Source: Pseudomonadota bacterium
GTDB taxonomy: Bacteria > Bdellovibrionota_B > Oligoflexia > Silvanigrellales > Silvanigrellaceae
Length of the DNA: 64,000 bases
Direction of reading: 5' to 3'
Assembly (NCBI GenBank): GCA_039799905.1
Contig: JBDLRP010000036.1
Coordinates: 32,001-96,000, forward strand
Shown piece after piece: positions 1,707-6,168 of the stretch. The notes beneath the pieces were generated by a model that ran no database searches, was not told the DNA's origin, and worked only from the letters and a program-made list of their open reading frames with translations. Each line of letters begins with the position of its first letter. The stretch's first letter is position 1. The position numbers and the translations under genes are program-made.

Positions 1707-4700
1707 TTATCGGCTGCGGCTTTTCCAGTCAGCGTCAAACTCCCGAAGCTTCTTCAAAGCCGACTCGAATTCATCGTCTGAGACGCTGATGACAAAGCGC
1801 AGATGGCAGGGCAACCCCGTCCATGTAGCGTTATTTAGCAACAATCCATTGAAGGTAAAGATGTCGTGAGCAATTTTGTCGGCACATGCCGTTGGATCGA
1901 ATTGGGTTTCAGGTGGCTGTGCCCGACGCAGGTCCTCGATGTACCCGCGCGGGGAGGCGCACACAAAAAGGCCGCCCTCGGAATCTGCAACCTCCCATCC
2001 CAGTGAGGTCAGCAACTCAGAAAGTCGAGCTCCGCGCTGCTGCAACTGAGAGCGCTGCTGATCCAGAAATTCATGGATCGGGTGCTGGTCAGAGCAAAGA
2101 GCTTGATAGATTTTTTTTGCAGCGTATTTGACTGTCGAATGCGGTGCCGAAGAAATTCTTGTTCGGATGGATGATGCAAGTGTCGTATCCGTGCTGACAC
2201 TCCAGCCAAATCGGAGTCCTCCTGCGGCCAGCTCTTTGGACATACCGCCCATCAGAAAGATCGGAACTGACTCTCTTTCATGTTCCGAAATAAACCGGCT
2301 GAGGCGGGTGTAGGTCTGCTTCCGATGGAATTCCAAGCCTGAAAAAATCGAATCAAGAATCAAACCGCATTTGTGTTGGGCAAGAACCTCGAGGATGTCT
2401 GAGATTTCGCCCGAGCTGTAGACAGCACCCGTTGGATTGACAATCGGAGCGTTCAAGTAAAGCCAATGGGCTCCGGTGGCGGAGATTGTGTTGTCGAGTT
2501 CTTGAGCCGATATTTTAAAGCGATCGCGCGCGTGGGTCCTGACCCGCGTATGGTCTACATCGAAAAAATCACATGCCGATGAAAAATAACCGTAAGCACC
2601 CTCAGGCAATAAAATCTTTTGTTGTTTTTCGCTGATGGTTTCGAGCATCGCGGAGAATAATGGTGCAACTCCATTGCCCAAGATCACCGCTGACTCATCG
2701 ACGGATTCGAGGCCGAACCTGTGTGCAACAAATTCCACGATAGATTGTTCAACGTTGAGTTCTTGCGCGGAGACGTTCTGCCTGAGGTAGCTTTCCATGA
2801 TTGCGGCATGAACATAGGGTGGACTCTTGAGGCAGTTCTCTCCGTAGTCGAGACGAGTCGTGTTTGCCCCCAGATTCAACTGATGCGTGCGGATAGCCGG
2901 ATGAGCGAAAGCCTTTTGGATAAATGGAGCCAATGGCCCATGTTTGGAATCGTTGTCAGATTTTGGCAGGCGCAGGTCTTCGGATTTATTCTTGCGCAAA
3001 TCCGTCAATTGAAAATTCAATAGGTCAGAAAAAATTCTTGAATAGTACTTTTGTGTGAGCAGAGGAGTACGGCTGTATGTGAGCTCAGCTGCAGAGCTCA
3101 GCTGCTCTAGTAGGGTTGAGTTTTCAGAAAAAAGAAAACAAAGCTCAAGGTCGCGGTAGACTTTGTTTCTGACAAGTCCGCAGAGGAGTCCGACGTGTTT
3201 GGGCAGAGGATTGTCTGCAAGAAATGAAAGAACTCCGTGCGTCGAAGGTTGGCTCGACAATTCAAATTGCTGCGATAAGTCGATGAGCAGGCGTGTCGAA
3301 CTGCTCTTGGCGACCTCGCAGAGTCTAACAAACGCGTCACTGCTTCTTACTTCGAAGTCCTGAAGACTGACGATGGCCAGTTCAGGTTGCAGCTTTTCAA
3401 TCAGTTTGCAAATCTCGTCGGCCCGTCTGGGGATCTCGAGAACCACCGATTGTGAGAGGAGGTGGTCTTCGCCTCGGCGGCCGAGGATTGCATTGAGCTC
3501 TTTGTCGATGAAGGTCAGCTGAGGACGAAAAAGTTGTAAATGATTTTTGATGAGGCTGCGTCTGTTGGGAGCGATGAAGACACTCTTTGCCGTCATCGGG
3601 ATTCGCCAGTAGCTTCGTAAAAACTGCGCTATCTGTCTACGGAGTTGGGGTTCGCCCTCGGTGTCGGAGTAGGGGAGATTAGGTTTTTGCTGCAACCAGT
3701 CTGCAATGTTGCCAATGAAATTGATTTTTTCCTCGGCGAGCTCTTCATTATCGAAGGATAAATCGAGGCCACTCCGGGATTCCTCGAATTCATTCTGCCC
3801 GATGAGCTTGAATAGAGATTTGATTTGCGACGGCTGTCGGAGTTGAGCCTCATAGACCGAAAGACTATGCGCAATCCTTCCGCCCGCATTTGCATAGGCC
3901 TGCGCCGTCTGTGCACAGATGGGCTCGTCGCTGTTCAAGCTCGTATAAAACTCAAACCGGTGAGGAGTTGCCTTTTCAATATCGACAAGCGGCTGAATGT
4001 CGGTATCGGAGGCTTGCCAGACTTTGGTTGACCATATTTTACGTATTGAGAAGCCCCGCCGGGTGAACAATCGATCAAGCACCGCGGCGCCGGGTCGGCC
4101 TCCCATATTCAGTATTATTTTTGCTGACGGTTTGCAGACTGAAATCGCTTCTTCGACCGCCCTGGCGATCAGCCCCAGTCCGAACTGGTCTTCAATGTAG
4201 CCTTGTTTTTCGCAGTAGTTGCTGAGGCTATATAGAAATTGGTCATCGGCGTCTTCTGTTGCGAACTGGTCTGCGAGCAATGGTTCAGGGCTCAAAACCT
4301 GGGGAATGCAGCCAATCACTCGGTCTAGTTGAATCTTGTGGTCAATGGCGTAACCGAGCAAATCCGAACAGTGAAATTCAACCCGATCGAGGAGAGATTT
4401 TCCTTCACTGTCAATGATGGGCGTCCCGGAATTGTCCAATGCGTTGAGGAGTAGGTTGATGCGGGCGCAGGTGATGGCTCGTGGATTGATATCTAAACCA
4501 TAGAGTTTATAAGGCTGGGCTTGTCTGGCAAGTGCAATTGATATCCAGCCGTTTCCGCAACCAAGCTCGGCTATCGTTCGTCCCTGAAATTCTCCGGCGG
4601 GATAGCGGGCGAGGCCTTCGAAAAAAGTAAAAGACCAGTCTTCAGGCGTAAAGATACTCGGCAACTGAAGCAGGGCTAACTGATTTTCGCTCTGACTGTG

Positions 4701-4928
4701 ACCATCGAGAGTGAGGCAACTGAACGCGAAATGATATTTGCCAATGAATGCGTCGATGTCATCGTCGGATTCGTCACAGATTGCCTTAAGACTCTGCAGA
4801 AATCGCCTGGCGATGCCTGCACCGTCGGGCTGCGCGCACTGCTCAAGCAGTTCTTTGAATAGGTCATACGCAGCCTGACTTGATTCGCTGCATCTTTTGA
4901 GGAAGTCAGCTGGATTGAGGGCTGTCAC
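1707..4928 (-). CDS. Methionine S-methyltransferase, full-length plant-type (SAM methyltransferase plus PLP aminotransferase-like domains)
   Basis: PSIFTPEDWSFTFFEGL, ELGCGNGWISIA (SAM motif I), GLDINPRA, LLDRVEF..SDLL, GCIPQ, LSNYC, EDQFGLGLIARAVEE, NMGGRPG, PHSTVKYAAKK and WTGLP..LRF match plant MMT along the whole length. Start placed at GTG 4928 (AAGGAG upstream) instead of the ORF-caller 5003. Confidence 0.9.
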   Translation of the reverse strand: MTALNPADFLKRCSESSQAAYDLFKELLEQCAQPDGAGIARRFLQSLKAICDESDDDIDAFIGKYHFAFSCLTLDGHSQSENQLALLQLPSIFTPEDWSFTFFEGLARYPAGEFQGRTIAELGCGNGWISIALARQAQPYKLYGLDINPRAITCARINLLLNALDNSGTPIIDSEGKSLLDRVEFHCSDLLGYAIDHKIQLDRVIGCIPQVLSPEPLLADQFATEDADDQFLYSLSNYCEKQGYIEDQFGLGLIARAVEEAISVCKPSAKIILNMGGRPGAAVLDRLFTRRGFSIRKIWSTKVWQASDTDIQPLVDIEKATPHRFEFYTSLNSDEPICAQTAQAYANAGGRIAHSLSVYEAQLRQPSQIKSLFKLIGQNEFEESRSGLDLSFDNEELAEEKINFIGNIADWLQQKPNLPYSDTEGEPQLRRQIAQFLRSYWRIPMTAKSVFIAPNRRSLIKNHLQLFRPQLTFIDKELNAILGRRGEDHLLSQSVVLEIPRRADEICKLIEKLQPELAIVSLQDFEVRSSDAFVRLCEVAKSSSTRLLIDLSQQFELSSQPSTHGVLSFLADNPLPKHVGLLCGLVRNKVYRDLELCFLFSENSTLLEQLSSAAELTYSRTPLLTQKYYSRIFSDLLNFQLTDLRKNKSEDLRLPKSDNDSKHGPLAPFIQKAFAHPAIRTHQLNLGANTTRLDYGENCLKSPPYVHAAIMESYLRQNVSAQELNVEQSIVEFVAHRFGLESVDESAVILGNGVAPLFSAMLETISEKQQKILLPEGAYGYFSSACDFFDVDHTRVRTHARDRFKISAQELDNTISATGAHWLYLNAPIVNPTGAVYSSGEISDILEVLAQHKCGLILDSIFSGLEFHRKQTYTRLSRFISEHERESVPIFLMGGMSKELAAGGLRFGWSVSTDTTLASSIRTRISSAPHSTVKYAAKKIYQALCSDQHPIHEFLDQQRSQLQQRGARLSELLTSLGWEVADSEGGLFVCASPRGYIEDLRRAQPPETQFDPTACADKIAHDIFTFNGLLLNNATWTGLPCHLRFVISVSDDEFESALKKLREFDADWKSRSR

Positions 4929-5055
4929 AGGTCTGTTCTCCTTCGCTTCGAAGATTTTGGACGATATTCGAGCGGCGTTCTTTTGCAAGGTTGCAAAATC
5001 CAAAAAGCATCCGCAGACTATGGCTCTGAAATTTAAATCGAATGCGGGGTCAAAT

Positions 5056-6168
5056 ATGACAGGGTTGTCGTTCCTTCGTTCAATGGCCGGACTTATGGGG
5101 CATTGTTTGGTTAGCCCGAGGCACGGCAGAATTGTTGCTTGCGTCGTACTCGTCGGTTTTGAGCTGAATGTGTTTGCTCAACCCGCACCTTCAGACTCGA
5201 CTGGAGCCATTACCGCAACTGCTCCCGCTACTACATACGCACAAAATCCGAGCGGTTCCGGCGCTGATAGTCCGTTACATGCCGTTCCTCCGTCATCACT
5301 TCTCGATTCGAGATTGCATCCTGCTGTGCTGCCAACAGAAGCAGAGCTTTCGTGCTCGGTGCTCTTCGGCTGCCAAATGGGTTTGACGCGTGGTTTTTCA
5401 TTCGGCGGTGATGCCTACCGGACGCTCGGAATGACACTTCTCGGGCAGCATTTTTACGGTGCTGGGGCTTGGACGTATCTGGACGTCAACGTTGGGTATC
5501 AGTTTCTTCGACTCGCTGACCGGCAATCCACCCTGATGGGTGCCTTTGGTTTTCGCACTTTCAGCTACGAAAACTCAGAGGGAGCGAAATTGTCACGATC
5601 TGGTCCCGCATTCCGAACAGCTTATGCTGAGGCGGTAATGCCTGCTTACACGCAAGGAATGGTGTTCGAGGCTTTCTCGTCGACGGTCCGCACTGCGGGT
5701 GGAGCGGATCAGCCATTCAACAAAAATGACGACAAAAAAGTTCGAACCTTAGTGCGCGAATACGCGCAATTTTTGCGAGCGAATCCATTGCTGAGGCTGC
5801 AAATGCCTGCCGACCTTGAGATAGTAAATTGGTCTCCGTCACAGGTCGATTTACCGGCCCCTATGCGCGGATATCTGCGCATCAACCCAATTTATGAGCA
5901 GGCGGATCTGCTGATTCGCGATGGCGAGGTCACAGCGTATAGCTGGTTTGAGAAGCGTTTTGCTCTGCAATTGATGTTGCTGACGACTTACGCATCGCCA
6001 GAACAGAGATCGGGTCGGCTGGGTCTTCTTGGCGGCCTCGGCTTCGAAATGGCTGCAACTCGCTCAACTTTCGAGTCCAAATCGCCGAGCCCGGCGCTAA
6101 ACCCTGAGATTCCCGAGGCTCCTTTGCTGCGCGGAAAGCTTGAGATTCAGGTTACCTACCAGTTCTAA
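5056..6168 (+). CDS. Hypothetical exported protein, probable outer-membrane beta-barrel
   Basis: Signal-like hydrophobic stretch ending VFA-Q, Pro/Thr/Ser-rich linker, alternating strands, C-terminal ..LEIQVTYQF (terminal Phe). Start uncertain (ATGs at 5056, 5083, 5095). Confidence 0.55.
   Translation: MTGLSFLRSMAGLMGHCLVSPRHGRIVACVVLVGFELNVFAQPAPSDSTGAITATAPATTYAQNPSGSGADSPLHAVPPSSLLDSRLHPAVLPTEAELSCSVLFGCQMGLTRGFSFGGDAYRTLGMTLLGQHFYGAGAWTYLDVNVGYQFLRLADRQSTLMGAFGFRTFSYENSEGAKLSRSGPAFRTAYAEAVMPAYTQGMVFEAFSSTVRTAGGADQPFNKNDDKKVRTLVREYAQFLRANPLLRLQMPADLEIVNWSPSQVDLPAPMRGYLRINPIYEQADLLIRDGEVTAYSWFEKRFALQLMLLTTYASPEQRSGRLGLLGGLGFEMAATRSTFESKSPSPALNPEIPEAPLLRGKLEIQVTYQF

Follow-up and report, generated by a model that had tools for sequence, protein, structure and literature searches.

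Organization of the gene and its product

We analyzed a 64,000-nucleotide stretch of a Silvanigrellaceae genome (hereafter, the window; assembly GCA_039799905.1, contig JBDLRP010000036.1, positions 32,001 to 96,000). Its minus strand carries, at positions 1707..5003, an open reading frame (ORF) for a plant-type (Group III) methionine S-methyltransferase (MMT), which runs for 1098 amino acids (aa) from a TTG at 5003 to a stop codon at 1707-1709. Sequence comparison divides the encoded chain into three modules: an MmtN-like S-adenosylmethionine (SAM)-dependent methyltransferase comes first, followed by a degenerate aminotransferase-like domain in the middle and, last, a class I aminotransferase domain that is complete. 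The present analysis concerns mainly the last of these, in which the residues expected to bind pyridoxal 5'-phosphate (PLP) are kept as a set in bacteria and the set is broken in seed plants. MMT is near-core in its lineage, being present in 28 of 34 genomes of the order and in 12 of 12 of the genus; the MMT of one same-genus genome (G018:C10:31345-34635) has one in-frame TGA inside the match. The full-length AlphaFold2 (AF2) model of the protein has a mean predicted local distance difference test score (pLDDT) of 90.4 and a predicted template modeling (TM) score of 0.87.

The TTG at 5003 probably over-extends the frame, and the true start is probably a GTG at 4926..4928 (minus strand; residue 26 of the long ORF), which gives a protein of 1073 aa. 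An AAGGAG run resembling a Shine-Dalgarno sequence was read at about 4938-4943, ending 9 nt upstream of the GTG at 4928, and the 90%-identity cluster of the protein has members of both 1098 aa and 1073 aa. Residues 1-30 have pLDDT values of 50-58 in the full-length model, and the alignment of relatives to MMT begins only at residues 20-34. Residue numbers refer to the long ORF (1098 aa) throughout.

The methyltransferase module spans residues 100-394 (3822..4706, minus strand) and includes the GxGxG motif ELGCGNG, D171, and C232. Pfam methyltransferase families matched residues 140-196, and the MmtN structure 7vvv matched residues 117-348 (E 5.4e-11), with ELGCGNG aligned on EVGIGTG. In this alignment, D171 falls on MmtN D69 and C232 on MmtN C121, and both residues are invariant in 108 aligned relatives. 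Asp69 and Cys121 of MmtN are SAM-binding residues according to Peng et al. 2022 (PMC9135737, cited throughout from excerpts of its text). The methyltransferase part is 63-65% identical to that of seed-plant MMTs, and a plant MMT of the same kind, Spartina SaMMT1, is active (Payet et al., PMC11464771, also cited from excerpts). Because the methyltransferase part is so close to plant MMT and the MmtN SAM-binding residues are conserved, conversion of methionine and SAM to S-methylmethionine (SMM) and S-adenosylhomocysteine may safely be predicted for the bacterial MMT.

The C-terminal domain carries a full set of PLP-binding residues

The aminotransferase domain comprises residues 696-1098 (1710..2918, minus strand), which, apart from the stop codon, enclose the region 1707-2900. 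Pfam Aminotran_1_2 (PF00155) matched residues 707-1084 over model positions 2-359 of 361, with an E-value of 1e-32 and 114.2 bits against a curated cut-off of 19.7. A profile of the domain matched solved class I aminotransferases (4my5, E 3.7e-32; 6f77, E 9.8e-31), and in these alignments N856, D884, S922-K923, R931, and R1069 coincide with the matching conserved positions of the two structures. A preliminary description of this DNA had read four class I/II aminotransferase motifs in the region 1707-2900, NPTG, LILDSIF, GGMSKELAAGGLRFGW, and HLRF; translation recovered all four there and in that order. It had also placed the codon of the catalytic Lys at 2235-2237, where the translation indeed has AAA, encoding K923. 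Structure prediction, which it had proposed as a check, gave a class I aminotransferase fold for the C-terminal domain: in Foldseek searches with the AF2 model, the best matches were class I aminotransferases, with TM scores (target-normalized) of about 0.8. Look-alikes of the domain in the ESM Atlas were generic aminotransferase clusters only.

The individual residues were assigned, all on the minus strand, by alignment to 4my5 and 6f77 and by translation. The RLDYGEN loop (residues 717-723, 2835..2855) is the counterpart of the GEPDF substrate loop and was aligned to 'LTLGEPDF' in 4my5 and 'LGAGEPDF' in 6f77. G778 (2670..2672) lies in a GNGVAPLF loop, which we take to correspond to the aminotransferase loop that binds the PLP phosphate. 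Y804 (2592..2594), the aromatic residue expected to stack on the PLP ring, is aligned to a Tyr in 4my5 and a Trp in 6f77. The NPTG motif (2427..2438) supplies N856, counterpart of the Asn at the PLP O3', and the LILDSIF motif (2343..2363) includes D884-S-I-F887 (2343..2354), in which the Asp is the counterpart of the pyridine-nitrogen Asp, aligned to DEVY in 4my5 and DDMY in 6f77. Within the motif GGMSKELAAGGLRFGW (2202-2249), S922-K923 to R931 (2211..2240) match the SK......R of both structures and correspond to the Schiff-base Lys with the phosphate-binding Ser and Arg. Finally, R1069 (1797..1799) in the HLRF motif (1794-1805) is the counterpart of the Arg that binds the alpha-carboxylate, aligned to 'GYLRISYA' in 4my5 and 'PNFRISYA' in 6f77.

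The PLP residues are nearly invariant across bacterial phyla

A database search with the C-terminal domain returned 181 matches. Among the 120 listed were Silvanigrellaceae, other Oligoflexia, Bacteroidota, Acidobacteriota, Kangiellaceae/Pleioneaceae, pleurocapsalean cyanobacteria, and a rotifer, and 116 full-length rows were aligned. K923 is a Lys in 115 of these 116 database relatives, and D884, N856, R931, R1069, Y804, and G778 are invariant in them. The one exception at K923 is P0054, a metagenome protein of 1070 aa and the sole bacterial-type relative lacking the Lys, which has a Gln at this position (GGISQEFSAAGIRFGY); this may be a sequencing error or a natural inactive variant. Rotifers (Rotaria sp.; P0045 and its cluster members) have a full-length bacterial-type MMT with both Lys and Arg intact (GGISKEFAGAGLRFGY), so that an animal lineage also has the PLP-competent form.

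A second sample was drawn from genomes, one per species, and gave 80 loci, of which 72 ORFs of at least 900 aa were kept and seven shorter, truncated ones were dropped. Together with the query, these 72 species-level genomes make up 73 prokaryotic rows, which extend to a deep clade only 25-27% identical in the C-terminal domain (Planctomycetota, Holophagaceae, Polyangiaceae, and Longispora). K923, D884, R931, and G778 are each kept in 73/73 rows, Y804 and R1069 in 72/73, N856 in 71/73, and S922 in 70/73. The substrate loop is as constant: R717, G721, and E722 are each kept in 72/73 bacteria and N723 in 73/73. Two cultured relatives, Fluviispira multicolorata (L018) and Silvanigrella aquatica (P0119), are among those with this residue set. 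Conservation of the Lys among bacterial homologues, which the preliminary description had named as a point to check, thus holds in both samples, and the aligned sequences indicate that bacteria have an intact and strongly constrained PLP residue set.

A second, degenerate aminotransferase-like domain may complete the site

The preliminary description had overlooked a second aminotransferase-like domain, at residues 395-695 (2919..3821, minus strand), which was recognized by hhalign, PDB profile searches, and AF2/Foldseek. Pfam has no match for residues 395-695. The hhalign comparison placed this middle domain in register with the C-terminal domain over 208 columns (E 1.9e-4, probability 47%), and among solved structures its profile matched the aminotransferases 2gb3 (E 2e-4) and 2zc0 (E 3.6e-4); of the 30 profile matches up to an E-value of 10, 27 are PLP fold-type I enzymes. 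Its AF2 model has a pLDDT of 88.4, and the best Foldseek matches were again class I aminotransferases (E about 1e-10, probability 1.00, query-normalized TM score 0.52-0.61). The middle domain has no Schiff-base Lys, the equivalent column, 612, being K, N, R, or H.

Two elements of the middle domain appear to reach the site of the C-terminal domain. The first is Y445 (3669..3671, minus strand), in a PY....G...LR motif, aligned to the Tyr of Y....G...LR in 2gb3 and 2zc0 and presumably equivalent to the Tyr with which one aminotransferase subunit reaches the PLP phosphate of its partner. It is a Tyr in 73/73 bacteria and is relaxed in plants (39/52). The C-terminal domain itself lacks this cross-subunit Tyr; its loop is four residues shorter, and the column is Gln or Arg. 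The second element is the YSR loop, Y643 S644 R645 (3069..3077, minus strand), predicted to lie against the phosphate pocket of the C-terminal domain. In bacteria, Y is kept in 70/73, S in 69/73, and R in 72/73; in plants, the columns are E/Q, G, and N/H, with S and R each surviving in 1/52. The YSR loop region is the sole cluster of bacteria-only invariant positions in the middle domain, and the alignments indicate that this one loop shares the evolutionary fate of the PLP site, the two being lost together in plants.

We predicted the complex of the two domains from the C-terminal domain alignment, with PLP added as an accompanying ligand; the middle domain was the partner to which the score refers. 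The model scored 0.87, the best of three controls scoring 0.00, and the runs agreed in at least 83% of contacts, with partner pLDDT of at least 77. Of 157 solved complexes, 116 attained that score mark, as did two of 215 mismatched pairs; these counts are only a rough guide here, our own alignments and a ligand having been used. The pass may reflect likeness rather than binding, because solved aminotransferase homodimers exist. The predicted contacts of lowest error join Y445 with G928/G929, T642-S644 with A780/P781, and R645-L648 with R931. S922, N777-G778, and E722-S727 also lie in the predicted interface, as do, reciprocally, residues 739-742 of the C-terminal domain and 616-620 of the middle domain. 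The modeled arrangement suggests an aminotransferase dimer that retains just one of its two sites, that is, a single-chain pseudo-dimer with one active site in which the middle domain would take the place of the missing second subunit.

Seed-plant MMTs have lost the PLP set

No plant was among the 120 listed of the 181 matches to the C-terminal domain. When the search was restricted to the methyltransferase part, dozens of named plant MMTs were found, 63-65% identical there. Fifty-three named plant MMTs were aligned with 16 homologues from outside the plants (15 bacterial and one rotifer); plant counts use 52 seed-plant MMTs, Macadamia P0166 having been dropped for a C-terminus cut short. Named plant rows under about 1030 aa were left out (P0192, P0207, P0210, P0211, P0218, P0220, P0227, and P0230).

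None of the 52 plants keeps a Lys in the K923 column, where F (24) and L (22) prevail over P, M, and S (two each). R931 is kept in 4/52 (usually K, D, E, or T), Y804 in 1/52 (usually Asn), and G778 in 0/52 (usually S, T, C, or F), and the RLDYGEN loop reads H.D.DQS in plants. D884 and R1069 are kept in 51/52 plants each, and N856 is an Asn in 45/52. The preliminary description had stated that the matching segment of Arabidopsis MMT lacks the Lys; for seed plants this proved correct, none of the 52 named seed-plant MMTs having it, and the phosphate Arg, stacking Tyr, and substrate loop are mostly lacking as well. A wider alignment of 197 rows contained 124 with the Lys and 73 without. Among 19 unnamed rows of that alignment that were inspected, the Lys was present in the eight of bacterial type and missing from the 11 of plant type. 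In many eudicots the next column, aligned to E924, has a Lys (SLKM); in monocots, magnoliids, and the one conifer (Cryptomeria), the E924 column is Glu, as in bacteria.

The divergence is concentrated in the C-terminal domain. Over the methyltransferase, middle, and C-terminal modules, plants are 63-65, 37-39, and 27-29% identical to the query, and Fluviispira is 65, 37, and 37% identical; over the first two modules, but not the third, plants are thus as similar to the query as distant bacteria are. We also scanned the chain without preselecting positions, taking those at least 93% conserved in bacteria and calling them replaced when kept in at most 20% of plants and shared when kept in at least 90%. 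The methyltransferase part had four replaced and 76 shared positions; among the replacements, L to M and V to I are conservative, and L309 to C and E385 to S are not. The middle domain had four replaced positions, all in one loop (A639 and Y643-S644-R645), and 15 shared ones. The C-terminal domain had 13 replaced (R717, G721, E722, N723, G778, Y804, F807, K923, R931, L1012, F1013, P702, and S1073) and 20 shared.

A tree of the first two modules, built with FastTree from 125 rows and 612 columns, grouped the plants in one clade with support of 100. When this tree was rooted on the deep bacterial clade, the plants fell inside the bacterial radiation, with their nearest bacterial kin unresolved and with warnings of long branches. 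The query MMT sits in a clade that also holds the plants in the same FastTree analysis, the deep nodes of which are unresolved. Every bacterial clade, the deepest included, has the Lys, and so do the aminotransferases from which the domain descends. However the tree is rooted, the PLP-competent state is therefore the older one and was lost in plants, which fits the ancestral bacterial enzyme suggested in the preliminary description.

Gene neighborhood and genome context

A cytidylate-kinase-like gene (PF13189; 997-1686, minus strand) starts 21 nt after the MMT stop codon. MMT is followed by the same gene in 12 related loci, and a 13th (L015) has a copy some 3.5 kb downstream. On the other side, a divergent ORF of 423 aa with no Pfam family (4897-6168, plus strand) has a listed start that overlaps the long MMT ORF and is kept in the same position in 17-18 related loci; it ends in ...QVTYQF, which by eye resembles the terminus of an outer-membrane barrel. 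Beyond it lie rplK, rplA, and rplJ, as assigned by eye. Conserved neighbors were considered as a clue to function and set aside: only the cytidylate-kinase-like gene, the divergent upstream gene, and the ribosomal protein genes recur, and they do so in the query's own family only. In the Silvanigrella/Fluviispira loci L017 (4208-6175), L018 (13243-15231), and L019, an acetyl-CoA-synthetase-like gene adjoins the MMT stop or extends across it (overlap of 0 to 27 nt); for L017 and L018 the assignment comes from the Pfam families AMP-binding and ACAS_N, and the L019 gene was likened to them by size and position.

Two homocysteine S-methyltransferase domains are encoded in the query's own genome: one belongs to a MetH-like frame, the other to a 653-aa fusion with methylenetetrahydrofolate reductase (MTHFR). 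The fusion gene (G000 contig C13, locus L002 529-2490, minus strand) adjoins the MetH-like frame and a histone-deacetylase-family gene. The MTHFR fusion is a candidate user of SMM as methyl donor that could close an SMM cycle; the two homocysteine S-methyltransferase domains are compatible with such a cycle and not specific to one.

A second, PLP-dependent active site is probable

We consider it probable, if far from certain, that the C-terminal domain of bacterial plant-type MMT is a second catalytic site that depends on PLP. A working site is preferred to a relic because the residues for the cofactor and the alpha-carboxylate are invariant across phyla, the trans-acting residues are retained in complementary fashion, and plants have lost them together. 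In the proposed mechanism, the N-terminal domain would methylate methionine with SAM to give SMM, the step in which we have most confidence. PLP would be held as a Schiff base at K923, its phosphate lying between G778, S922, and R931 of the C-terminal domain and Y445 and the YSR loop of the middle domain, so that the chain would form an internal pseudo-dimer with a single active site. That site would turn over an alpha-amino acid, because R1069, the alpha-carboxylate Arg, and the GEN substrate loop are kept. As a guess to which we commit with least confidence, the substrate would be SMM, the methyltransferase's own product, because the methyltransferase that makes SMM is fused to the PLP domain. 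This choice is plausible because 1-aminocyclopropane-1-carboxylate (ACC) synthases, which share the fold and act on the sulfonium compound SAM, match strongly, and because PLP enzymes act downstream of SMM in the known bacterial routes to dimethylsulfoniopropionate (DMSP). The reaction could be a transamination to 4-dimethylsulfonio-2-oxobutyrate or an ACC-synthase-like elimination releasing dimethyl sulfide (DMS). After SMM, the next most likely role would be catalysis of the final methionine-salvage step, which would supply the methyltransferase with methionine; nothing discriminates between transamination, elimination, and methionine-forming transamination. The MMTs of land plants would descend from such enzymes, with the scaffold retained and the PLP chemistry gone.

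A fuller version of this proposal is offered only tentatively. Bacterial plant-type MMTs would be single-chain pseudo-heterodimers in which the SMM they make is passed on to a composite PLP site for transamination(-decarboxylation) or for an ACC-synthase-like, DMS-releasing elimination, in an undescribed sulfonium pathway of which the plant enzyme is a half-dead descendant. It is an equally tentative part of the same reading that such a pathway extends through Oligoflexia, Acidobacteriota, Kangiellaceae, pleurocapsalean cyanobacteria, and rotifers.

Several observations weigh against a second catalytic site. PLP binding and turnover are predicted from residues, the position of PLP in the complex model is unscored, and the interface comes from a two-chain model only. 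The usual Tyr three residues after the Asp is a Phe here (F887), and the column is Phe in 116/116 database relatives, 72/73 bacteria, and 49/52 plants. In aspartate aminotransferase, a Tyr-to-Phe change at the PLP O3' position lowers turnover, and by analogy the invariant Phe suggests that the site is not that of an ordinary fast transaminase. Furthermore, 35 positions of the two aminotransferase-like modules are conserved in both bacteria (at least 93%) and plants (at least 90%). Plants keep both modules without the PLP set, and therefore the scaffold has a PLP-independent role, which could be its main role in bacteria too.

The neighborhood also gives no help to a second activity. ORFs were called and clustered in the 80 loci, and no neighbor or pathway partner is conserved across them outside the query's own family, the largest neighbor cluster covering 18 loci, all of close kin. 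Thirty-two same-strand downstream genes scanned against Pfam belong to unrelated families or to none. This agrees with the statement of Peng et al. 2022 that bacterial Group III MMT genes are unlinked to genes for DMSP, nonribosomal peptide synthetases, or the methionine cycle (PMC9135737, in the excerpts). The preliminary description had noted an absence of partner genes and explained it by a second activity in the same chain. The absence is borne out in the 80 loci; a second activity is at most a possible reason for it.

Alternative explanations

The lack of a conserved pathway partner and the Phe at position 887, which would be expected to slow catalysis, would both suit a domain that binds PLP without turnover and serves as a ligand sensor or allosteric switch in the manner of MocR/GabR, holding methionine, SMM, or SAM as an external aldimine. 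The fold matches of the middle domain include GabR and PdxR, two regulators that depend on PLP and share the aminotransferase fold, and the NCBIfam matches of the whole protein include the MocR-like YczR. We know of no methyltransferase regulated by such a PLP sensor, which counts against this explanation. The alpha-carboxylate Arg and the RLDYGEN loop are as invariant as the cofactor binders, which fits either explanation and does not separate the two. We regard a sensor as unlikely.

Less probable again, and in our view a poor prospect, is a transaminase that forms methionine from 4-methylthio-2-oxobutyrate and glutamate and so feeds the methyltransferase. The E. coli methionine aminotransferase YbdL, of the same broad class I group, appears among both fold and sequence matches, and the conserved Arg residues at the site entrance (R717, with R645 contributed by the middle domain) would be suited to a dicarboxylic co-substrate, for example glutamate. 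However, the likeness to YbdL or to MtnE-type enzymes is no greater than that to other aminotransferases, and we see no physiological reason to couple salvage to SMM synthesis.

It is very unlikely that the C-terminal modules serve folding or oligomerization only, the residues conserved in bacteria being structural relics that bind no cofactor. The 35 positions shared by bacteria and plants favor such a role, as does the activity of Spartina SaMMT1 (PMC11464771, in the excerpts), given that plants keep both modules without the Lys, the phosphate Arg, or the stacking Tyr. Relics, however, are not expected to stay invariant in 73/73 genomes of at least eight phylum-level groups, including clades only 25-27% identical, and the decay in plants falls at exactly the positions of the PLP set.

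The preliminary description had gone furthest, proposing that one polypeptide takes methionine through SMM to DMSP-aldehyde and DMSP, or releases DMS, as a self-contained pathway. The fusion of the methyltransferase to an intact PLP site and the absence of conserved partner genes would fit it, and Rhodes et al. are said to have proposed in 1997 a transamination-decarboxylation of SMM for a plant. Silvanigrellaceae are a freshwater family, in which DMSP is not expected, and the relatives of the query are mostly uncultured metagenome bacteria. Known bacterial routes from SMM to DMSP use PLP enzymes, a decarboxylase and a transaminase (PMC7496086, cited from excerpts), but a single PLP site cannot supply the oxidation to DMSP, and of four bacteria with Group III MMT that were tested, just one made DMSP (Peng et al. 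2022, PMC9135737, in the excerpts). The DMSP lyase family PF16867 also had no match in the query's own genome, though absence of the lyase is not proven because that genome is only 93.8% complete. A full DMSP route in one chain is therefore the least supported version and most improbable.

Significance and comparison with known systems

The aminotransferase-like tail of plant MMT has reportedly gone unexplained since the enzyme was cloned by Bourgis in 1999. In bacteria with Group III MMT, the role of SMM is called hard to predict in the excerpts of PMC9135737. The comparison of bacteria with plants turns both puzzles into questions for the bench: the bacterial PLP site appears to be built from two fused aminotransferase-like domains, and it is this very site that plants have dismantled. 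Should it be active, bacteria common in fresh water, soil, and the sea would have a new reaction in their metabolism of sulfonium compounds and related sulfides (SMM, DMS, and DMSP), and the plant domain would be explained as a relic. If PLP is only bound, the domain would regulate a methyltransferase in an unusual, cofactor-dependent way.

As a gene, this MMT is an unremarkable representative of a known family, and the intact PLP feature is a variant relative to the characterized plant enzyme. The original report of bacterial plant-type MMTs is said to be that of Williams et al. in 2019. The gene belongs to the Group III ('plant-like') MMTs of Peng et al. 2022 (PMC9135737), exemplified by that of Pseudobacteriovorax antillogorgiicola; Pseudobacteriovorax loci (L029 and L067) stand in the same tree and have the same PLP set. 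In the excerpts of that paper, the tail is named only as an aminotransferase domain at the C-terminus, and intact PLP residues, their loss in plants, and a second aminotransferase-like domain go unmentioned. The full-text literature likewise held, in the passages retrieved, which did not cover Williams 2019 or Bourgis 1999, no mention of intact PLP residues, plant loss, or two aminotransferase-like domains.

MmtN is homologous to residues 117-348 of MMT and has in common with it the GxGxG motif and the SAM-binding Asp and Cys. Unlike MMT, it is a protein of about 300 aa without aminotransferase-like modules, and it is described as a trimer (PMC9135737, in the excerpts). ACC synthases (1m4n, 1b8g, and 7dlw) have the class I aminotransferase fold, act on the sulfonium amino acid SAM, and are fold matches of the C-terminal domain. 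They rank 7th to 9th among its PDB profile matches (E 6.4e-27), no closer than ordinary aminotransferases. The GEN of the substrate loop may resemble the AEN motif of ACC synthase.

Plant MMT (EC 2.1.1.12; for example, Magnolia P0161, Oryza P0184, and Cryptomeria P0195) has the same length and the same order of three modules as the bacterial protein, is co-linear with it from end to end, and shares D884, F887, and R1069. It differs in having no Schiff-base Lys, phosphate-loop Gly, RLDYGEN loop, or YSR loop and in having mostly lost the phosphate Arg and the stacking Tyr, its C-terminal domain being 27-29% identical. Aminotransferases of the Thermus aspartate aminotransferase and Pyrococcus aromatic aminotransferase type (4my5, 6f77, 1gd9, and 1bjw) have the same fold as the bacterial C-terminal domain (TM score about 0.8), and their Lys, Asp, Asn, Ser, both Arg residues, and stacking aromatic residue align with it. 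Compared with these enzymes, MMT has Phe for the O3' Tyr, GEN for GEP in the substrate loop, and a shortened cross-subunit-Tyr loop in its C-terminal domain. They are homodimers with two active sites, whereas the MMT chain combines one complete and one degenerate domain.

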